From an uncultured Gammaproteobacteria bacterium (lineage in GTDB: Bacteria > Patescibacteriota > Microgenomatia > Levybacterales > UBA12049), in the NCBI GenBank assembly GCA_964416505.1, contig CAYQEJ010000002.1:968-64967 (forward strand): DNA of 64,000 nucleotides, given 5' to 3'. The translations under genes and the position numbers were made by a program. The notes beneath the pieces were generated by a model that was not told the DNA's origin, made no database searches, and saw nothing but the letters and a program-made list of their open reading frames with translations. Positions within the stretch are counted from its first letter, which is position 1; every line of letters begins with the position of its first letter. Shown piece by piece: positions 1-33,962 of this stretch.

Positions 1-278
1 TAGTAAGTAAAATTAAGAAATTAAAAAATGATGGAAATAAAGATCTTCAGGTCTATGGAAGCGGCAATTTTATTCAGACACTTCTAAAAAATGATTTGGT
101 GGATGAATTATGGCTTAAAATTTTTCCTCTTACGCTTGGAAATGGAAAAAAATTATTTGAAAAAGGAACAATCCCAGCAGGATTTAAACTAATAAATGCG
201 CAAGTTTCTCCAAGCGGAGTTATTTTTGCCAACTACAAACGCTCCGGTGAAATAAAAACAGGTAACATAGGCGAATAA
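1..278 (+). CDS. dihydrofolate-reductase-family protein (RibD C-terminal domain), 5'-partial at window edge
   Basis: Frame is open from the window edge to the stop at 276-278. The C-terminal sequence ...VYGSGNFIQTLLKNDLVDELWLKIFPLTLGNGKKLF... matches the RibD_C / DHFR-like fold signature. Confidence 0.5.
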   Translation, partial: VSKIKKLKNDGNKDLQVYGSGNFIQTLLKNDLVDELWLKIFPLTLGNGKKLFEKGTIPAGFKLINAQVSPSGVIFANYKRSGEIKTGNIGE

Positions 279-6894: not shown

Positions 6895-6938
6895 TTTTCT
6901 TATTGACTGATTAAGTAATAATTGGTAATATTTTATTT

Positions 6939-7056
6939 ATGCAAAAAATTAAAAATCTTATTCTCGTCATTCTTAACTCCTTGAAGGGAGGGAAGTCTGA
7001 CGCGTAAATAAGATAGATACGCAAAAAGACAAGCCTCCCAAACGGGAGGTTTTTTT
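6939..7056 (+). promoter_or_regulatory. leader-peptide + terminator module, copy 1 (candidate attenuator)
   Basis: A TTGACT-N17-TAATAT promoter lies at 6902-6930. A 22-codon ORF MQKIKNLILVILNSLKGGKSDA* (6939-7007) is rich in Ile/Leu/Val. An upstream GGGAGGG could pair with the CCTCCC arm of the downstream terminator GCCTCCC-AAAC-GGGAGGT-T7 (7033-7056). Confidence 0.35.
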
Positions 7057-7069
7057 GTGGTTAAAAATT

Positions 7070-7429
7070 ATGAGAGACATATACGATTCATCAATACATC
7101 ATGCAATAAAAGGTCCGGTTCCTCCTGCTCTTTGGAGAAGTTATGAAATAGGAGATAACGGCAGAGCTGAAATTTACACTCTTGGAGATACGCTTATTAC
7201 CAAAGAAACCCGATTTGTAGGCAGTGAAAGGAGACCAAGTTTTAGGTTCGAAGTAGACGGAGGTACTTTAAAGGATAAATTATCAGCTGCTAATTGGCTA
7301 GCTGAAAGTATTGCGAGAGACAAAGATAGATATAGAATTTCTCAGCCTGGAACTCAGGTTTTCCCAGATAGAGTTGTTTTCAAATCAGGAACATATTTAG
7401 AAGACACTACAGAAGGGGGAGGTGAGTAG
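7070..7429 (+). CDS. hypothetical protein
   Basis: ORF directly after the terminator. ATG at 7070 (MRDIY...). Locally elevated GC. Confidence 0.4.
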   Translation: MRDIYDSSIHHAIKGPVPPALWRSYEIGDNGRAEIYTLGDTLITKETRFVGSERRPSFRFEVDGGTLKDKLSAANWLAESIARDKDRYRISQPGTQVFPDRVVFKSGTYLEDTTEGGGE

Positions 7430-10418: not shown

Positions 10419-12173
10419 ATGAATAATATTGATCTCTCCAGCATAAGACATTCCACTGCTCATCTTCTGGCAGCTGCTATTTTAAAACTCTATCCTGATA
10501 CGAAATTAACTATTGGCCCAGCAATTGAAAATGGTTTTTATTATGATTTAGATTTTTCAAATCCAATTTCAGAAAATGATCTCCCTAAAATTGAAGAAGA
10601 AATGAGAAGAATACTCCCAAGCTGGAATTCTTTTTCACATAGAGAAGTTTCCGATCAAGAAGCAAAGGAATTCTATAAAAATAATCAATACAAACTAGAG
10701 CTAATAGATGAAATTGTAGAAAAGGGTGAAAAAATAACTTTTTATAAAGCGGGAGAATTTGAAGATCTTTGCCGCGGCGGACATAGCGAGAACCCCTCAG
10801 AAGAAATTGGCGCATTTAAGCTTCTTTCTATCGCTGGTGCCTATTGGAGAGGAAGCGAAAAAAACAAAATGCTCACTCGTATTTACGGAACTGCTTTTTC
10901 AACTCAGAAAGAACTAGATGAGTACTTAGTAATGCTCGAAGAAGCAAAGAAAAGAGATCATAAAAAATTAGGTTTAGAATTAGATCTTTTCATGTTTCAT
11001 GAAACATCTCCAGGAATGCCATACTGGCTACCTAAAGGATTTGCTCTATATAATTCGCTTCTTAATTTTTCAAGAGAAGTTCACAAGAAATATAGATATC
11101 AAGAAATCGCAACTCCAATTCTAAACAAAAAAGATCTATATATGACTTCAGGTCACTGGTCTCATTATAGAGATGATATGTTCCTGTCTCCAATGTCTTT
11201 CATAAGAGATGATTCAAAAGAACTTCTGGAGGGTGGAGAAGTATTCGGCATCAAACCAATGAACTGTCCAAATGCTATGAATGTATTTTCGATGACAATT
11301 AGATCTTATAAAAATCTGCCTCTTCGTTTTTCAGAAACTTCAGCTCTCCATAGATTTGAGCCTTCAGGCACACTAAATGGACTTTTCAGAGCAAGAGAAT
11401 TCCACCAAGACGACGCTCATATTTTCCTCATGACTTCTCAAGTAGAAGATGAATTTCAAAAAATAATGGAGATGATCGAAGAACTCTATGGCGCATTCAA
11501 TCTTTCATATAGGCTTAGATTTGGTACAAGACCTGAAAACTTCATGGGCGAAAGTAAAGATTGGGACGAAGCCGAAGATGCATTAAAATCAGTGCTTGAT
11601 AAATCGGGCAAAGAATACGTAACTGAAGAAGGAGAAGGAGCATTCTACGGACCAAAGATAGATATTCTTATGAAAGATTCACTAGGACGTGAATGGCAAA
11701 CAGGAACAATTCAATTAGATTTCCAACAACCCAAAAATTTCAAACTAGAATATATTGATGAAAGCGGAAAAACTACTACCCCTGTTGTTCTTCATAGAGC
11801 CCTATTTGGCTCATTTGAAAGATTTCTAGGAATTCTTTTAGAACATTTTGCAGGTATACTCCCAATTTGGCTTTCTCCTATTCAAGTAATAATTCTACCA
11901 ATAGCAGATAAGCATAATGATTTCTCTCAAAATTTAGTAAATGAGCTTAGAAAAAATGGTATCCGAGCAGAGGTTGATTCTCGAAGTGAGAGACTTCAAC
12001 TTAAAATAAGAGAAGCGACTTTGCAAAAGATTCCATATTTAGGTATAATAGGGGACAAAGAAATTGAAAAAAATTCAGTTTCAGTTAGAGCTTTAGATGG
12101 GGAAGATTTAGGAAGTTTAAATCTTTCTCATTTTTTAGAAAAGCTAAAAGATCAAATTGATAAAAAAGTCTAA
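10419..12173 (+). CDS. thrS: threonyl-tRNA synthetase (short form, no N-terminal TGS domain)
   Basis: Class II aaRS core with ThrRS editing/catalytic motifs (HSTAHLLAAAI..., FHQDDAHIF, anticodon-binding C-terminus). Confidence 0.9.
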   Translation: MNNIDLSSIRHSTAHLLAAAILKLYPDTKLTIGPAIENGFYYDLDFSNPISENDLPKIEEEMRRILPSWNSFSHREVSDQEAKEFYKNNQYKLELIDEIVEKGEKITFYKAGEFEDLCRGGHSENPSEEIGAFKLLSIAGAYWRGSEKNKMLTRIYGTAFSTQKELDEYLVMLEEAKKRDHKKLGLELDLFMFHETSPGMPYWLPKGFALYNSLLNFSREVHKKYRYQEIATPILNKKDLYMTSGHWSHYRDDMFLSPMSFIRDDSKELLEGGEVFGIKPMNCPNAMNVFSMTIRSYKNLPLRFSETSALHRFEPSGTLNGLFRAREFHQDDAHIFLMTSQVEDEFQKIMEMIEELYGAFNLSYRLRFGTRPENFMGESKDWDEAEDALKSVLDKSGKEYVTEEGEGAFYGPKIDILMKDSLGREWQTGTIQLDFQQPKNFKLEYIDESGKTTTPVVLHRALFGSFERFLGILLEHFAGILPIWLSPIQVIILPIADKHNDFSQNLVNELRKNGIRAEVDSRSERLQLKIREATLQKIPYLGIIGDKEIEKNSVSVRALDGEDLGSLNLSHFLEKLKDQIDKKV

Positions 12174-13251: not shown

Positions 13252-13536
13252 ATGCCCTACCTCTTTACCCAAGAAGGCTACGAAAAATTAAAAAAAGACC
13301 TAGATGAATCAGAAAAAAGAAGACCTGAAGTAGTAGCTACTCTTTCTAAAGCTCGCGCCATGGGAGATCTTTCGGAAAATGGATTTTATAAAGGAGCAAA
13401 ATTCGAGCTAAATGACTTAGATAGGAAAATAAGGCATCTTAAGCATCTTATAAAGGAGGCTAGAATAATAGAAAAACCTACACAAAATGAATTTGTACAA
13501 ATTGGCCACACTGTAAAACTTAAAAGAATTAATTGA
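13252..13536 (+). CDS. greA: transcription elongation factor GreA, N-terminal domain only (short/truncated)
   Basis: Coiled-coil GreA N-domain (LSKARAMGDLSENGFYKGAKFELNDLDRKIRHLKHLI) then the first ~20 aa of the C-domain. Stop TGA is embedded in the TTGACA of the downstream promoter. Confidence 0.55.
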   Translation: MPYLFTQEGYEKLKKDLDESEKRRPEVVATLSKARAMGDLSENGFYKGAKFELNDLDRKIRHLKHLIKEARIIEKPTQNEFVQIGHTVKLKRIN

Positions 13537-14372: not shown

Positions 14373-14400
14373 ATTGTAATTTCTTTTCTTATTTGCTATT

Positions 14401-14513
14401 ATGTTTTTTATGATTAAAGGTTTGAATTTTGGTTTTTACTTTACACACCCTACGGGGAGGTAACGTATTGCCAAAATAAAAGGCAATAAGCCTCCCAAAC
14501 GGGAGGTTTTTTT
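14401..14513 (+). promoter_or_regulatory. Phe-rich leader peptide + rho-independent terminator (candidate pheA attenuator), module copy 2
   Basis: Leader ORF atg ttt ttt atg att aaa ggt ttg aat ttt ggt ttt tac ttt aca cac cct acg ggg agg taa (MFFMIKGLNFGFYFTHPTGR*, 5 Phe). GGGGAGG just before the stop can pair with the CCTCCC arm of terminator GCCTCCC-AAAC-GGGAGG-T7 (14490-14513). A hairpin TTGCC-aaaataaaa-GGCAA lies between. The terminator segment is identical to the 7033-7056 copy. Confidence 0.45.
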
Positions 14514-14521
14514 GTGTTTAT

Positions 14522-15727
14522 ATGGGAAGTTTAGAACGAAGAATACAACAAAAAAAATTAGGAACCAGAGAAATAGTACAGCCAAGAATGATTGCATGGC
14601 TTGGTCCTCGCGGAAATTTCACCCAACTCGCCCTAGAACAATTAGCTACTAGGGGCTCTCGGTATGATGATGCAATTCCCATGGAGGCAAGATCAATTGG
14701 AGAAATGTTTGATCTCGTAGAATCCGGGGCCTGTGAACTAGCTCTTGTTCCTTACGAAAACTCATCTGATGGACCAGTAGGCGAATCGCACAGAAATTTG
14801 CACGATAGATCTGTTCAGATTGTCGATGAAACTGTACTTGGGATAGAACAAGTGCTTTATATGAAGCGCGGCGTATTCGTAGGAGATATACAAGTTGTTG
14901 CATCTAAAGACTCTGCACTTGGCCAATGCGATTCACATATTTCTCAAGTTTTCGGAGAACATATCAAAAGACTTCCTACAAAAAGCACAGGTGAAGCAGT
15001 TGCAATGGCCGCAGAGGATCCAAGAATTGCCGCAATCGGCAGCAGTATTTCTGCCACAGCTCAGGGCTTAGACAAACTTTTAATAGCAACTAGAAATTTC
15101 CAAGACAATCCAGGAAACGCAACTACATTTACGATTATTCAAAAACCTGGCGAATTGCCGGCGCCTACTGGAAACGACAAAACCACATTTATCTTAACTA
15201 TTCCTGATCAAACAGGCAGTCTTCACAAAGCGCTTATGGAACTTTCGGCAAGAGGAGTAAATCTTAACAAAATTAAGTCTATGCAGAAAGCAGATGGAGG
15301 AATGAGATTCTTGATGTCTATAGACGGTCATATTACTGATCCAAATGTACACTCAATTCTTATGACTCTTAGAGCTCAGGAAATGAAAATTCTAGGTTCA
15401 TACCCGAGAGCAGATTATACACCCGCGAGAACAGGAAGAGCTTACGCTATGGATTATGCGGTTAAAAGAATTAAGGATGAAGCACAAAACGGAGATCAGG
15501 CAACGGATCAAAGAACCTTAGTCTTTACCGTAAAAAACGAGCCTGGATCTTTATTTAAAGCGCTTGGAGTATTTGCAGAAGCAGGAGTAAGTCTGAAAAA
15601 AATTGATTCCCAGCCAAGCGGAGAATTCGAAGAATACATCTTTTATGTAGCATTTAAGCAATCTCTAACATCCGATGACTTAATTACCCAATTAGGAAAA
15701 CACACTGATTATTTAAAACAAATTTAA
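14522..15727 (+). CDS. pheA: prephenate dehydratase with two C-terminal ACT domains
   Basis: PDT-domain motifs IAWLGPRGNFTQLA and LALVPYENSSDGPV, followed by two ACT-like modules (TFILTIPDQTGSLHKALMEL...; LVFTVKNEPGSLFKALGVFAEAGVSL...). Confidence 0.75.
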   Translation: MGSLERRIQQKKLGTREIVQPRMIAWLGPRGNFTQLALEQLATRGSRYDDAIPMEARSIGEMFDLVESGACELALVPYENSSDGPVGESHRNLHDRSVQIVDETVLGIEQVLYMKRGVFVGDIQVVASKDSALGQCDSHISQVFGEHIKRLPTKSTGEAVAMAAEDPRIAAIGSSISATAQGLDKLLIATRNFQDNPGNATTFTIIQKPGELPAPTGNDKTTFILTIPDQTGSLHKALMELSARGVNLNKIKSMQKADGGMRFLMSIDGHITDPNVHSILMTLRAQEMKILGSYPRADYTPARTGRAYAMDYAVKRIKDEAQNGDQATDQRTLVFTVKNEPGSLFKALGVFAEAGVSLKKIDSQPSGEFEEYIFYVAFKQSLTSDDLITQLGKHTDYLKQI

Positions 15728-15740
15728 GGAGGTGATTAGT

Positions 15741-15983
15741 ATGACAGAAAGAATAGATTTAGATTATAAATCTTTACCAATAGCAGATCCGCATGCGGGT
15801 ATAGCTCCTGAGAGAAAATTAGTTGTCTTAAGTACAAATCCGTCAGCTCATGCACTCTATACAGCTGAGAGAGAAAGAGCGGAAAGAATTCGAATAAATG
15901 AGATTACAGCTAAAGTGAAGGGATGGATACGCGACCAACGCTCGATAGGCATGGGGGAACAACTTGATTTAATTGCTAAATAA
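15741..15983 (+). CDS. hypothetical protein
   Basis: Consensus RBS AAGGAGGTG then ATG 6 nt later. Elevated GC. Confidence 0.4.
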   Translation: MTERIDLDYKSLPIADPHAGIAPERKLVVLSTNPSAHALYTAERERAERIRINEITAKVKGWIRDQRSIGMGEQLDLIAK

Positions 15984-16020
15984 TTGACATTAAAAATTTC
16001 AAATGTTATCATCCCAGGCA

Positions 16021-16526
16021 TGCAAGATAGATATAGACCTGCTGCAACACCGGCAGAAATTAGAGAAGGTGCTGACCAAACAATTGCAAGACTCAGGTCA
16101 TTAACTGCGGAATATCAGTCAAAAGGAATAGCGCTTACTAGATGGCATGTAGATCCTATTGCAGGATCCCATGCAAATCTTGATGTTGCTCAGGATTTAT
16201 TGGATACGACAAATCCATTAAGACAATTAACTCGAAGAGATTTGACCCTTGATAGACTTGGAGAATATCCATCTATCAAAATCTTTCCTAGTGGGGACGG
16301 AAGTAAAATCGGCCTTATTACCCCACATTTTACATATCAATTTAGTCATCAGAGAATAGAAACAGTTTTTAATGGAGGGTTTGATGTTCCAAGAAGAGTA
16401 AGACTTTTAGAAAGATTTGGAAGACAAACTCCAGGACAATTAATTTTAAAGGCAATGGAAGAAGCCCAAGAAGAAGCAAGATATGGAAGAACAATTTTTT
16501 CTAGATTTACAGGTAGAAATAAATAA
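16021..16526 (+). CDS. hypothetical protein
   Basis: TTGACA-N17-TATCAT promoter ends 7 nt before ATG (MQDRYRP...). The TTG at 15984 belongs to the -35 hexamer and is not a start. Confidence 0.4.
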
Positions 16527-16571: not shown

Positions 16572-17606
16572 ATGGAAAATGATCTTATAAATATTAAAAA
16601 CACAGCTCTTTCTATGATTTTGGATACAAGTGATCCAAAGGAGTTAGAGGAGTTAAAGCTACAATTTCTTGGAAGAAGCGGTCAGCTTACCATAGCCATG
16701 AAAGAACTTCCTAAGATAGATCCAGAAAAAAGAAAAGAAGTGGGTATACTAGCAAATGAAGTAAAAACTACAATAGAGGATGCTTTGAAGGAAAAAGGAA
16801 GAGATATAAAACATGGAGAAACAAAATTAAAAATTGAAAAAATAGATGTAACAAATCCAGGAATCAGACCTCCACTTGGCCATCATCATTTAATTACTCA
16901 AGCAATTTCAGAAATAACAGATATATTTGGAAGAATCGGGTTTACTCGAGTCAGATATCCAGAAGTGGAGTGGGACTGGTATGCATTCGGGGCACTAAAT
17001 TTTCCAGAAGGTCATCCAGCAAGAGATGATTGGGAGACTTTTTTCATAGATGCTCCTGTTAACAAGAAATATGGCCCTATGCTATTAACTCCTCATACAT
17101 CTAGCGGTCAAATTAGAGAAATGGAAGCAAATAAACCACCCATCAAGATGCTTAACATTGCTAAATGCTACAGACGCCAATCTGACATTTCACATACTCC
17201 TATGTTTCATCAATTTGAAGGATTAGCGGTAGATAAAAATCTTTCAATTGTAAACTTAAAAGGGGTTCTAGACTTTTTTGTAAAATCCTATTTTGGAGAA
17301 AAAAGAAGTGCCAGAATAAGACCTTATCATTTTGAATTTACAGAACCATCTTTTGAAGTTGATGTAAGCTGCGGAGTTTGCAACGGCAAAGGGTGTAAGC
17401 TTTGTAAGGAAGGATGGCTTGAAATGGGAGGCGCTGGAATGGTTCATCCAAACGTTTTAAAAAACTGCGGAATTGACCCCGAAGAATATAACGGATTTGC
17501 ATTCGGGTGGGGAGTAGAAAGAGTTCTAATGATGAAAGAAGGAATTGAAATTGATGATCTAAGACTTTTATATAACAATAAACTTGAATTTTTGGAGCAA
17601 TTCTAA
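16572..17606 (+). CDS. pheS: phenylalanyl-tRNA synthetase alpha subunit
   Basis: Class II motifs FPEGHPARDDWETFFI..., HTSSGQIR, GWGVERVLM. Confidence 0.9.
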   Translation: MENDLINIKNTALSMILDTSDPKELEELKLQFLGRSGQLTIAMKELPKIDPEKRKEVGILANEVKTTIEDALKEKGRDIKHGETKLKIEKIDVTNPGIRPPLGHHHLITQAISEITDIFGRIGFTRVRYPEVEWDWYAFGALNFPEGHPARDDWETFFIDAPVNKKYGPMLLTPHTSSGQIREMEANKPPIKMLNIAKCYRRQSDISHTPMFHQFEGLAVDKNLSIVNLKGVLDFFVKSYFGEKRSARIRPYHFEFTEPSFEVDVSCGVCNGKGCKLCKEGWLEMGGAGMVHPNVLKNCGIDPEEYNGFAFGWGVERVLMMKEGIEIDDLRLLYNNKLEFLEQF

Positions 17607-19549
17607 TGAATATAAAAATAATTGATTCTTGGTTAAGAGAATTTCTGAAAACGAAGGCGAATGCTAATGAAATAGCTAAAGAACTTTCTTTAACATCGGT
17701 TTCAGTAGAACGTGTCGAAAAAAAAGGGAATGATTATATTTACGACATTGAGGTTACAACTAACAGAGCAGACCTTATGTGTGTTGAAGGTATTGCCCGA
17801 GAAGCATCTGCCGTCTTACCCCAGCAAGGCACTGCGGCAGAATATATTTCTCATAAATCTCCAAAGGTTGAAGGCGGAAATATTTCTTTTCCTATCGAAA
17901 TAATAAATGATCCAAAACTAGTTAACAGAATAATGGCAGTAGTTATGGAAGTTGAAATTGGAGAAAGCCCTAAGGAAATTAAGGAAAGATTGGAAACTAG
18001 CGGAATTAGAAGCTTAAATAATGTGATCGATGTCACAAATTATATTATGCGAGAAGTAGGTCACCCGGCGCATGTTTTTGATTATGATCTTCTAGATACT
18101 AAGAAAATGATTATAAGAGAATCTAAAGATGGAGAAGAACTAACAACTTTAGATGGCAAAAAATACAGATTAAGCGGCGGAGATATAGTAGCGGACAATT
18201 CGCGCGGAGAAATCATAGATCTTCTAGGAGTAATGGGAACAAAAAATTCTGTAGTTCAAAACAGCACTAAAAGAATATTATTTTTCTTAGATAATAATAA
18301 TCCTAAAAAAATTAGAAACACTTCTATGAATCTTGGAATAAGAACTGAAGCAGCAATAATAAATGAAAAGGGAATTGACCCCGAGCTAATGGAAGAAGCA
18401 TTCAAAAGAGGTGTTGAGCTTTATAAAAAAATCGCAAAAGGAAAAGTTGTTTCAAAAGTTTTGGATATTTATCCAAACAAATCAAAAACTCATATCATTA
18501 AAGTTTCAATAGAAAAGATAAACAAAATAATAGGCGTAGAAGTTCCTGTTAATAAATCAGTAGAGATTTTAAAAAACTTGGGGTTTGAGACAAAGAAAAC
18601 TGATAGATATTTAGAGGTAGTTGTACCAACCGTTAGATCCAGTGAAGTATTGATCGAAGAAGATGTCATAGAAGAGATAGCAAGAGTTTATGGATATCAT
18701 AAATTACCAAGTATAATTCCAACATTTTTAAACAATAAAAATAAAACTTATTTAGATAATTTTTTTATTGAAGAAAGAATTAAAAATTCATTAAAATATT
18801 GGGGATATACTGAAGTTTACAATTATTCACTTATTTCAGAAGATCTATTTGACGGACCCATAGAGAAAGCGGTAAAAATTAAAAATCCACTATCTTCCGA
18901 TATGGAATATTTAAGGAATAGTCTCATTCCAGGAATGCTTCAGGTTATAGAAAATAACAAAAGCAGAGACGTAATAAAAATTTTTGAACTTTCAAATACT
19001 TACCAGAAAACAGACTTACTCCCACAGGAAAAATTAATGCTTGGTGGAATTTTAAAAAAACCAAATGTATCTTTTTTTGAAATAAAAGGTGTTATCGAAG
19101 TTTTATTAGAAGATTTAGGAATAAAAAATTATAAATTTAAAGAAAGAAAAGATGAAGTAGGTGCATATATACATATTGGAACTGACGAATTAGGATATAT
19201 AGAAGTTTTAAGCGGGAATGTTTTAGATTTTGAACTTTCTATGGATGTAATAATCAAACATGCAACTCTTAAAAAAATATACAAACCTATCGCTAAATTT
19301 CCTCCCGTTGTTGAAGATATTACATTTGTTCTTAACGAAACATCCAATACGGAAGAGGTCATAGAAGAAATAAAACTTCAGAGTTTTTTAATATCTGACG
19401 TAACCCTTAAAGACCAATATGAAAATGCAAAAACATTCCATATCGTTTACCAAGCACCTGACAAAAACTTAACTAGCGAAGATGTAAAAGAGATTAGGGA
19501 ACAAATTATAAAATCAATTACCAATAAATTTAAGGCGATTGTGAAATAG
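17606..19549 (+). CDS. pheT: phenylalanyl-tRNA synthetase beta subunit (short form)
   Basis: Immediately follows pheS with ATGA overlap. tRNA-binding, B3/B4 and B5 core regions are recognisable. 647 aa. Confidence 0.85.
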   Translation: MNIKIIDSWLREFLKTKANANEIAKELSLTSVSVERVEKKGNDYIYDIEVTTNRADLMCVEGIAREASAVLPQQGTAAEYISHKSPKVEGGNISFPIEIINDPKLVNRIMAVVMEVEIGESPKEIKERLETSGIRSLNNVIDVTNYIMREVGHPAHVFDYDLLDTKKMIIRESKDGEELTTLDGKKYRLSGGDIVADNSRGEIIDLLGVMGTKNSVVQNSTKRILFFLDNNNPKKIRNTSMNLGIRTEAAIINEKGIDPELMEEAFKRGVELYKKIAKGKVVSKVLDIYPNKSKTHIIKVSIEKINKIIGVEVPVNKSVEILKNLGFETKKTDRYLEVVVPTVRSSEVLIEEDVIEEIARVYGYHKLPSIIPTFLNNKNKTYLDNFFIEERIKNSLKYWGYTEVYNYSLISEDLFDGPIEKAVKIKNPLSSDMEYLRNSLIPGMLQVIENNKSRDVIKIFELSNTYQKTDLLPQEKLMLGGILKKPNVSFFEIKGVIEVLLEDLGIKNYKFKERKDEVGAYIHIGTDELGYIEVLSGNVLDFELSMDVIIKHATLKKIYKPIAKFPPVVEDITFVLNETSNTEEVIEEIKLQSFLISDVTLKDQYENAKTFHIVYQAPDKNLTSEDVKEIREQIIKSITNKFKAIVK

Positions 19550-26403: not shown

Positions 26404-26634
26404 ATGTCATTAGTAATAAGACTCTCAAGAACGGGAAAAAGAGGAGAAAGAAAATTTAGAATTGTGGTTGCAGAAAAAAGATCGCGAAGAGAAGGCGATC
26501 CTATTGAGATGCTTGGATCTTTTGAAAAAGGAGCAAAAACATCTCCATCAAATCTTAAAAAAGACAGATTTGATTACTGGGTTTCTCAAGGCGCAAGACC
26601 AACTCCAACAGTTTCAGCTATCTTCAAAAAATGA
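26404..26634 (+). CDS. rpsP: 30S ribosomal protein S16
   Basis: MSLVIRLSRTGKRGERKFRIVVAEKRSRREGDPIE is a typical S16. Confidence 0.85.
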   Translation: MSLVIRLSRTGKRGERKFRIVVAEKRSRREGDPIEMLGSFEKGAKTSPSNLKKDRFDYWVSQGARPTPTVSAIFKK

Positions 26635-32798: not shown

Positions 32799-33472
32799 AA
32801 AATTAGTATGATGCCCACAATTCCTCCTGTCAAGAACGCTACGTAAAGCGATAAAACAATTCCCGGGAAGCCAAGTATCAATCCTAAAACAAAAGCAAAT
32901 TTCACATCCCCAAAGCCCATCCCTTTTCCTTTTGTTAATAAAAATATTAAAAGAAAAAATAAAAAAGTACCTAAACCAGTAAATAGATTTATTACTAATA
33001 AATTTGGATTTATAAAAATATTAAATATCAAACCTAGGATAACTAAAAAAATTAAAACTTTATCTGGGATGATTCCGAATTTCAGATCTACAAAAAATAT
33101 TACAATCAGACTTGAGACTATCAATAAATTGTATGAAGTAAGCAGAATATCAGGATAACTCGCCAAATAGATAAACATAAAAAACAGACCAGTTACAATT
33201 TCCAATAACAAATATTGGTAAGAAAGCTTTATCCTGCAATATCTACATCTTCCTTTTAGCACTAAAAAGGAGAGGAGGGGAATAAGATCAATCCACTTTA
33301 GAGTTTTTTTACAGTTTTCGCAGTAAGACCTTCCAAGCAAAGTTTCATTTCTAGGAAGTCTGTCTATGAGAACATTAAGAAAAGAACCAACAAATGTTCC
33401 CAGTATAAAAAAAATTAAGCCGAAAAAAATGCTCACCAAAGTGAGCATAATAAAATACGAAGACAAGGTCAA
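32657..33472 (-). CDS. pilD: prepilin peptidase (A24 family)
   Basis: N-terminal Cys-box CENCKKTLKWIDLIPLLSFLVLKGRCRYCR, polytopic membrane core, catalytic Asp region GFGDVKF. Confidence 0.8.
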   Translation of the reverse strand: MTLSSYFIMLTLVSIFFGLIFFILGTFVGSFLNVLIDRLPRNETLLGRSYCENCKKTLKWIDLIPLLSFLVLKGRCRYCRIKLSYQYLLLEIVTGLFFMFIYLASYPDILLTSYNLLIVSSLIVIFFVDLKFGIIPDKVLIFLVILGLIFNIFINPNLLVINLFTGLGTFLFFLLIFLLTKGKGMGFGDVKFAFVLGLILGFPGIVLSLYVAFLTGGIVGIILILWKKKSMKFAVPFGPFLVFGAIVVLFFSEILIPKITTLLALQNWVLR

Positions 33473-33473
33473 G

Positions 33474-33962
33474 TTAGTTGCATGCGCTTGCTGAAGTTGG
33501 AGCTGATGCTACAAAACATGACTTTCCAGTTTGAGAAGAATACATAAAATATGGGTTTGAAGTATATTTCTTAGATTTTACAGTTCCATATACTACAAAA
33601 TTATTATTTGTAGTATCTACTAAGTAGTCCATTGTCCATCCACTTGGAACACTGCTCAAATTAATTTTCATAGTTGTTAAATTTGCCGAAGTATTCGTTA
33701 AATAAGTTCCATTGTTGCTTTGTATAGCATACTGTTCAGCTCTATTAGCATACTCTCTAACTGAATTCATAACATTTTGATCATTTGCTTGTTTTATTTT
33801 ATCTGCTGGATCTATTGCGAGAAGAAGTCCTGCAGCTAAAATACCTAAAATTGCTATAACTATTAAAAGCTCTACCAATGTAAAACCTGAAGAACTAGAA
33901 GAATCTGATGAACTCGAAGAACCGCCGAGAAGCTTCTTAAGTAATTCGAGCAGTTTTTTCAT
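33474..33962 (-). CDS. type IV pilin (candidate major pilin)
   Basis: Ser-rich leader then G|FTLVELLIVIAILGILAAGLLLAI. First structural gene after pilC. Confidence 0.7.
   Translation of the reverse strand: MKKLLELLKKLLGGSSSSSDSSSSSGFTLVELLIVIAILGILAAGLLLAIDPADKIKQANDQNVMNSVREYANRAEQYAIQSNNGTYLTNTSANLTTMKINLSSVPSGWTMDYLVDTTNNNFVVYGTVKSKKYTSNPYFMYSSQTGKSCFVASAPTSASACN

Follow-up and report, generated by a model that had tools for sequence, protein, structure and literature searches.

The closest described counterpart of the element reported here is the pheL-pheA leader of Escherichia coli (Rfam RF01859, Phe_leader), which controls a prephenate dehydratase gene through a short open reading frame (ORF) with Phe codons; the end of this ORF (segment 1) pairs with a GGGAGG-type segment 2 located beside the stop codon. 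pheL has been reported in Gammaproteobacteria, with only few candidates elsewhere (PMC3082878), and was defined by Gurvich et al. (2011) by at least five in-frame Phe codons within 60 nucleotides (nt), at least two of them adjacent, together with a terminator and alternative structures upstream of pheA (PMC3082878). A second E. coli leader, pheM of pheST-ihfA, occupies the position thrS-infC-rpmI-rplT-[leader]-pheS-pheT and carries GGAGGCU and the terminator AAAGCCUCC-CAGU-GGAGGCU-U7. The DNA analysed here, a stretch of 64,000 nt from an uncultured bacterium (contig CAYQEJ010000002.1, positions 968 to 64,967; "the window" throughout), contains a short Phe-codon ORF and an intrinsic terminator directly upstream of a pheA-like gene. 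We consider it very likely that the two form a ribosome-mediated transcription attenuator that senses charged tRNA-Phe, perhaps tRNA-Tyr.

The host genome is that of a member of Candidatus Levybacteria (Candidate Phyla Radiation (CPR), or Patescibacteria), to which the named relatives of the PheS protein encoded in the window belong (77-79% identity), whereas pheL belongs to Gammaproteobacteria. A literature search found no paper tying CPR bacteria to leader-peptide attenuation, so the preliminary description of this locus was fair in calling such control unexpected in a streamlined genome. The element is very probably a classical leader-peptide attenuator, part of a small modular family, in a lineage from which none seems to have been reported.

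The anatomy of the element, its alternative pairings, their conservation and its geometry come from computation and comparison. Its parts and the gene that follows are:

14374-14402, plus strand: promoter-like site, with a -35 element TTGTAA (14374-14379), a 17-nt spacer and an extended -10 element TGc-TATTAT (14394-14402); 9/12 match with TG
14410-14463, plus strand: leader peptide ORF MIKGLNFGFYFTHPTGR, 17 codons, stop codon TAA at 14461-14463, without a Shine-Dalgarno sequence
14426-14477, plus strand: hairpin 1:2 (pause or anti-antiterminator hairpin), formed between 14426-14450, from the Phe/Tyr codons to CCC, and GGG..CCAAAAUA (14455-14477)
14455-14496, plus strand: antiterminator 2:3, GGGAGGU (14455-14461) paired with GCCUCCC (14490-14496), enclosing an inner hairpin (14466-14472 with 14482-14488)
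14488-14513, plus strand: intrinsic terminator 3:4, AAGCCUCCC (14488-14496), loop AAAC (14497-14500), GGGAGGUUU (14501-14509) and U7 (14507-14513), with a stem of 9 base pairs
14522-15727, plus strand: pheA-like gene of 401 residues, encoding a prephenate dehydratase domain and two ACT-like domains

The distance between the start of the element and the U-tract is about 105 nt. Its transcript is likely to start at about 14409-14410, at ATG 14410. The -10 box ends 7 nt before this ATG and overlaps an alternative start, ATG 14401, from which a 20-codon ORF (14401-14463, MFFMIKGLNFGFYFTHPTGR) with five Phe (F2, F3, F10, F12 and F14) can be read. Because the promoter-like site overlaps ATG 14401 and places the likely start near ATG 14410, translation probably covers three of the five Phe codons and no more. 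From ATG 14410 the leader contains three Phe and one Tyr, with no adjacent Phe; these regulatory codons (TTT 14428, TTT 14434, TAC 14437 and TTT 14440) form an F-G-F-Y-F cluster at 14428-14442. The five-Phe ORF of the preliminary description is thus present in the sequence, but its likely translated part is poorer in Phe. The GGGGAGG tract (14454-14460) abutting the stop codon (14461-14463) and the terminator GCCTCCC-AAAC-GGGAGG-T7 (14490-14513), the U-tract of which ends 8 nt before the pheA ATG at 14522, are exactly where that description had placed them.

The similarity to E. coli pheL extends to the details of both structures. The terminators are GCCUCCC...GGGAGG with U7 in the window and GGCCUCCC...GGGGGGCC with U6 in pheL, and the leader peptides end, immediately before the stop codon, in FYFTHPTGR in the window, FFFTFA in the consensus of the CPR elements described below and FFFTFP in pheL. 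The Rfam Phe_leader model matches the window at 36.7 bits (E = 1.1e-4 in a 351-nt search) and its relatives at 29-40 bits, under its gathering score of 55. Conversely, a covariance model built from the element (R1), with which 689 kb were searched, matches the E. coli pheL-pheA leader weakly (38.7 bits). A blastn search of the region against E. coli genomes gave no match, and the likeness is seen only by covariance models and by eye. Unlike pheL, which contains seven Phe, the window leader contains three Phe and one Tyr, none adjacent, lacks a Shine-Dalgarno sequence and is apparently leaderless; the count of Gurvich et al. (PMC3082878) is reached only from ATG 14401 with its five Phe, ATG 14410 giving three, none adjacent. 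Compared to E. coli PheA, the enzyme is without the chorismate mutase domain and possesses two ACT domains instead of one. The resemblance may reflect common descent, transfer or convergence; the last could be driven by UUC and ACC (Phe and Thr) codons, which force segment 1 to be CU-rich and hence its partners to be GA-rich and CU-rich.

In folding calculations the leader region reaches -37.7 kcal/mol (z = -4.15 relative to shuffled sequence). Without a ribosome, hairpin 1:2 and the terminator both form, and the hairpin sequesters segment 2 in the minimum-energy and centroid folds as well as in the nascent-RNA fold; with a ribosome at the stop codon, the terminator alone is left. When segment 1 is masked and segment 4 has not yet been made, the antiterminator is worth -18.9 to -20.3 kcal/mol, compared to -13.8 (core) to -18.8 (extended) kcal/mol for the terminator hairpin, so the pairing between GGGGAGG and CCUCCC put forward earlier is energetically competitive. 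The antiterminator duplex is also better than in shuffled sequences (p = 0.001). A ribosome stalled on the regulatory codons, 15-27 nt ahead of segment 2, would leave this segment free, while a terminating ribosome would cover it, as the stop codon overlaps segment 2. The window element shows five hallmarks of ribosome-mediated attenuators (codon cluster, terminator, exclusive antiterminator, 1:2 hairpin and geometry); a sixth, read-through that increases under limitation of the cognate charged tRNA and requires leader translation, would be expected of it. The pheL-pheA-type logic proposed in the preliminary description is thus backed by sequence comparison, alternative pairings and geometry.

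Termination, its dependence on Phe, leaderless initiation and the membership of the operon are inferred from this arrangement. Transcription would begin at or next to ATG 14410, and a ribosome would load on the leaderless 5' AUG and trail the RNA polymerase. When Phe-tRNA is plentiful, the ribosome would reach TAA 14461 and cover GGGAGGU, segments 3 and 4 would pair, and transcription would stop at the U-tract (14507-14513). When Phe-tRNA is scarce, the ribosome would stall on the TTT and TAC codons (14428-14442), hairpin 1:2 would be broken and segment 2, now free, would capture segment 3 before segment 4 is made, allowing read-through into pheA, orf83 and possibly orf168-pheS-pheT. In the absence of a ribosome, hairpin 1:2 would form and termination would be the default.

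The window PheA belongs to a small family with a prephenate dehydratase domain and two ACT domains (PDT+2xACT; about 40 clusters, P0001-P0040, of about 400 residues), in which one member is 97% identical to it and the rest at most 48%. The loci compared are those of this family (L003-L007 and L087-L098) and one further locus, L100. A scan of genome contigs with the single PheA protein had given no loci and an alignment-based scan only two, whereas a metagenome scan returned almost only ordinary prephenate dehydratases (PDTs), which were taken as negative controls. PheA is 97% identical to the window protein in L003 and 31-48% identical in the relatives' loci, nearly all of which have the gene order thrS-infC-rpmI-rplT-(0-1 gene)-pheA-pheS-pheT; PDT+2xACT genes adjoin pheST in most fetched loci.

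A Phe-rich upstream ORF, expected at homologous loci if the preliminary description was right, is found together with the rest of the element at every fetched PheA-family locus that reaches upstream of pheA. Fourteen further elements precede pheA (in 13 fetched loci) or pheS (in L098). All have the parts seen in the window, namely a promoter, a terminator and, between them, a short ORF containing FFF or FxFYF with a segment 2 that coincides with its stop codon or closely follows it. In order, their parts are a TTGAC-17-TGnTAnAAT promoter, an ATG 6-8 nt (in a few, 11-13 nt) downstream, an ORF of 13-26 codons, the stop codon, GCGGAGGU, a small inner hairpin, ACCUCCG-loop-CGGAGGU and U7. The leaders end in a consensus ...(A/S)FFFTFA before the stop codon, with FFF, FFFF or FxFYF as codon clusters. 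In relatives with a correctly located segment 2, the regulatory codons lie 13-33 nt before it, and the stop codon falls inside it, shortly before it or up to 27 nt beyond its start (the automatic finder of terminator arms gave over-long hairpins in 9 of 26 elements, and geometry was taken from rows with a sensible segment 2). The L003 leader differs from that of the window by one substitution, H13Y, and a loop substitution in its terminator leaves the stem intact. L098 has two elements, one before pheS and one before pheA. L100, the PheS of which is 88% identical to that of the window, is without pheA and has kept the element (MIKIINFGFYFTFPSGR, 66.5 bits) before orf88-orf169-pheST; the NFGFYFT cores of the window and L100 leaders differ by three nucleotides, all synonymous.

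At the same loci, some public or mechanical gene calls start pheA too far upstream, running through leader and terminator (L090/L091, P0009, 455 residues; L005, 5911-7227). Elements of this kind are missed by Rfam at its thresholds and sometimes swallowed by public gene calls. The taxonomic label or binning of one locus, L006 (DATLDE010000011.1), is open to doubt: the record is titled Candidatus Limnocylindrales (Chloroflexota), yet its genes are colinear with those of the Levybacteria loci, and L006 and L090 share 80% identity in their orf124-like proteins.

Segments 2, 3 and 4 vary in concert between lineages. The sets GGGAGG/CCUCCC/GGGAGG and CGGAGGU/ACCUCCG/CGGAGGU are accompanied by the divergent UCGGGG/CCCCGA/UCGGGG (L004) and by GGGGAG/CUCCCC/GGGGAG and GGGGGCU/AGCUCCC/GGGAGCU (both in L098). 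Across the relatives, the terminator helix is 98.3% paired with four compensatory pairs (none of 500 shuffles is as good), and de novo prediction by RNAalifold returns this helix and the apex of helix 1:2. Helix 1:2 is 82.6-83.8% paired and shows compensatory changes, the upper value being reached by 3 of 500 shuffles. In the model alignment, which was fitted to the structure, hairpin 1:2 and the terminator together are 89.7% paired with 12 compensatory pairs (0/500). The antiterminator helix is 80-85% paired in register, compared to 37-57% when slid. For this helix a per-locus comparison of duplexes with shuffles stood in for a formal covariation test: in 25 of 25 elements, which are related and not independent, the natural upstream sequence offers the 5' arm of the terminator a better partner than shuffled sequence does (p = 0.001-0.027).

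Phe clusters as such are not rare, since 27 of the 612 small ATG ORFs in the window (4.4%) have at least three Phe in five codons. Since upp lies upstream and no other terminator intervenes, the arrangement could in principle combine the ordinary terminator of that gene with a chance Phe-rich ORF in an AT-rich spacer. We find such a coincidence barely credible. The 64 kb hold four strong intrinsic terminators, compared to 0.3 +/- 0.6 in Markov shuffles, and the ORF at 14401/14410 (counted at both ATGs) is the sole Phe-rich small ORF within 150 nt upstream of one. Even where the upstream gene differs or diverges, the ORF is kept together with the segment-2 complement and the terminator, the upstream neighbour being rplT, orf123, a DAHP-synthase-like gene, a divergent aspS or pheT depending on the locus. 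The element also has its own promoter, the substitutions between the window and L100 leader cores are all synonymous, and R1 has no match in 79 ordinary PDT loci (about 0.5 Mb) that served as controls. Assignment of the terminator to upp was rejected, as it is contradicted by the comparative data.

The position of the element recalls pheM. As in E. coli, the CPR element stands directly before the pheST unit in L100 and L098, and the leaders of L004 and L090 end in FFFTS before the stop codon. Unlike in pheM, pheA is found between leader and pheS in the window and most relatives, and the CPR leaders are apparently leaderless; R1 matches pheM at 26.8 bits only.

R1 also finds further copies in CPR loci that carry other codon clusters in the leader:

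L094, 5249-5374: sister attenuator
L092, 2787-2910: sister attenuator
L087, 2758-2891: sister attenuator
L005, 5251-5393: sister attenuator
L090, 3425-3542: sister attenuator
L006, 5249-5367: sister attenuator
L098, 5211-5325: sister attenuator
L098, 5969-6085: sister attenuator

Clusters of Trp, Tyr and Phe in sister leaders (FWYFYF, WFYFYY, FWFYYF, WYYFYF, FWNYYYF and WNFYYF) precede genes for DAHP synthase or DAHP-synthase-like proteins and for a conserved 123-residue protein of unknown function; the FWFYYF leader in L087 precedes an ORF of unknown function, orf107. The DAHP synthase step is the first one shared by the pathways to all three aromatic amino acids. A LALLLCL leader precedes a gene for a stand-alone LeuA allosteric domain, and an IIQISII leader precedes a gene of unknown function. 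A further copy is located in the window itself:

6903-7056, plus strand: second attenuator-like element, promoter of leaderless type TTGACT-17-TAATAT, 7 nt, then ATG 6939; R1 score 39.6 bits
6939-7007, plus strand: its leader MQKIKNLILVILNSLKGGKSDA, with an Ile/Leu/Val cluster (LILVIL) and segment 2 GGGAGG at 6986-6991

The terminator of this second element (7031-7056) lies inside 29 nt (7031-7059) that are identical to 14488-14516 at pheA. The element precedes orf119 (7070-7429) and is kept in L100 (2890-3007). orf119 has seven relatives and no Pfam or NCBIfam match, and orf119, orf69 and orf75, which stand behind the second element, have no known function. The other two strong terminators of the window are at 33430-33447 and 26480-26500, both on the minus strand; the former is of the ordinary gene-end type, about 25 nt after the ORF at 33474-33962.

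The amino-acid class of the leader (F; W/Y/F; L; I) thus varies between copies and fits the downstream gene wherever the latter is recognisable, an outcome expected of a ribosome-based sensor and of no RNA-only model. T-box elements are the usual control of pheS in many Gram-positive bacteria (Firmicutes), and a sensor of this kind, a metabolite riboswitch or a bound protein, with the small ORF being incidental, might be considered here too. The element could likewise produce a small RNA or peptide acting in trans; attenuator-derived products with trans roles, such as rnTrpL/peTrpL, have been described (PMC7298713). We judge all these possibilities very improbable. The T-box covariance model has no match in the window at its gathering score, nor in the region at E <= 10, no riboswitch match was found in either, and both readings were rejected accordingly. 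Moreover, the element is only about 105 nt long, and its codon cluster, confined to one frame, is conserved in class between sisters and fits the downstream gene.

No purine-rich tract precedes the leader ATG, and the -10 box is mostly 6-8 nt ahead of it among the relatives, the distance being 10-13 nt for about seven elements. The arrangement is shared by longer genes: 16 ORFs of at least 60 residues in the window have a TTGnnn-16..18-TAnnnT motif ending 5-9 nt before the ATG, e.g. those starting at 10419 (thrS), 13572 (upp), 16020 (orf168), 40124 and 45710, which suggests that leaderless mRNAs are common in the source genome. A precedent for leaderless leader peptides is provided by Deinococcus deserti, where transcript starts were mapped by differential RNA-seq (dRNA-seq; de Groot et al. 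2014, PMC4007540); transcriptomes of Corynebacterium and Streptomyces are reported to contain similar peptides. D. deserti belongs to another phylum and its leaders show no sequence relationship to those of Levybacteria, the starts of which are placed here by the position of the -10 box.

The pheA gene has no Shine-Dalgarno sequence of its own. A start codon is found between the U-tract and pheA:

14514-14534, plus strand: mini-ORF of 6 codons, GTG-TTT-ATA-TGG-GAA-GTT-TAG (MFIWEV), overlapping the pheA ATG out of frame

GTG 14514 lies 7 nt after the GGGAGG (14501-14506) of the terminator 3' arm. Of 26 related elements, 18 have an ATG, GTG or TTG right behind the U-tract; at L004, L005, L006, L090, L092, L094, L097, L003 and L095 it is 7-9 nt away from GGAGG in the 3' arm. 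At seven loci the resulting ORF of 3-14 codons (3-5 codons in six; e.g. MEKI or MGKIW) ends on the pheA ATG or 1-5 nt past it, while the start codons in L003 and L095 share the frame of pheA. The mini-ORF may be the ribosome entry site for pheA, with the terminator arm as its ribosome-binding site, and the arrangement hints that the same switch also gates pheA translation through coupling.

A switch of translation, instead of or besides that of transcription, would use the same pairings: 3:4 would hide GGGAGG 14501-14506, the Shine-Dalgarno sequence of GTG 14514, and 2:3 would expose it, so that ribosome entry to pheA would be gated with or without real termination. Besides the spacing and recurrence of these start codons, the use of GGAGG Shine-Dalgarno sequences elsewhere in these genomes speaks for it. 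We nevertheless regard it as improbable. A perfect tract of seven or eight U, a hallmark of termination and needless for the sequestration of a ribosome-binding site, follows the stem in essentially all elements; eight of the 26 elements have no such start codon, and in L100 a strong Shine-Dalgarno sequence 50 nt further on belongs to the target gene itself. Control of translation is best taken as a possible additional layer on top of attenuation and not as its replacement.

Downstream of the attenuator, the following features bear on the extent of the controlled unit:

15732-15983, plus strand: orf83, a lineage-specific ORF starting 4 nt after pheA
15984-16012, plus strand: promoter-like site between orf83 and orf168, 11/12 match
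16020-16526, plus strand: orf168, a lineage-specific ORF between orf83 and pheS
16572-19549, plus strand: pheS and pheT, possible distal members of the attenuated unit

The preliminary description named pheA as the controlled gene. This stands, but probably not for pheA alone: the unit is probably pheA-orf83 and perhaps reaches orf168-pheST. Homologues of orf83 and orf168 directly follow the attenuator in L100 (9142-9954). Both ORFs are also present in L003 (4301-5095), where identity to the window is 99% for orf83, 65% for orf168 and 97% for PheA. orf168 has only three relatives among 5.8 billion proteins and no Pfam or NCBIfam match. The pheA product matches Pfam PDT (2.3e-36) and NCBIfam NF008865 (211.9 bits, just below the cut-off of 219), contains the conserved motif N-x-T-x-F as NATTF, and has a C-terminal ACT-like domain that resembles the regulatory domain of phenylalanine hydroxylase.

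Several observations weigh against an attenuator that responds to Phe. Three non-adjacent Phe and one Tyr, read from 14410, make a weaker sensor than the five to seven Phe of classic leaders, and the reading of the leader ORFs as leaderless, the most likely one, comes from promoter spacing only. Once segment 4 exists, the equilibrium favours the terminator conformer even if a ribosome is stalled, so that the choice between conformers must be a kinetic one, like that in textbook attenuators. Covariation in the antiterminator helix is not significant, as 104 and 65 of 500 shuffles reach the observed pairing in two alignments, because the GGAGG/CCUCC core is almost invariant. The promoter-like site at 15984-16012 could drive orf168-pheST apart from the attenuator. 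Finally, of the genes for Phe synthesis only pheA is visible in the window.

Taken more broadly, and as a tentative proposal that is somewhat less likely than not, Levybacteria and their relatives would have leaderless attenuators that form a modular family with a single GGAGG/CCUCC scaffold. Swapped codon clusters (Phe; Trp/Tyr/Phe; Leu; Ile/Leu/Val) would regulate genes that include pheST, the rare PDT+2xACT protein, DAHP synthase, the stand-alone LeuA domain and lineage-specific ORFans, and the 3' arm of the terminator would in addition provide a start codon or coupling mini-ORF with its ribosome-binding site, making one switch for transcription and translation. If this is true, reduced and presumably host-dependent cells gauge amino-acid supply through tRNA charging, with transcription and translation tightly coupled. 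Gene regulation in CPR bacteria is little known. Because classical attenuation needs a ribosome close behind the RNA polymerase, a conserved attenuator family would be indirect evidence for coupled transcription-translation, and for translation of leaderless mRNAs, in this lineage, and would indicate that small genomes invest in amino-acid-specific sensing. The composition of a leader also hints at the amino acid to which an ORFan or odd enzyme (PDT+2xACT, the orf123 family or orf119) is tied.

The higher-GC island in which the gene had been said to sit is a mild effect. The GC content of pheA is 40.5%, compared to 35.7% for the window, and 28% at third codon positions (GC3). A recent transfer of pheA inferred from such an island is not supported by GC3 and was rejected. 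The gene is patchily distributed among close relatives, being absent from L100. Further upstream in the window, a 94-residue ORF (13252-13536) consists of the N-terminal coiled-coil domain of GreA/GreB alone, without the C-terminal domain, and is kept in the relatives L003 (1810-2094) and L100 (8102-8383).

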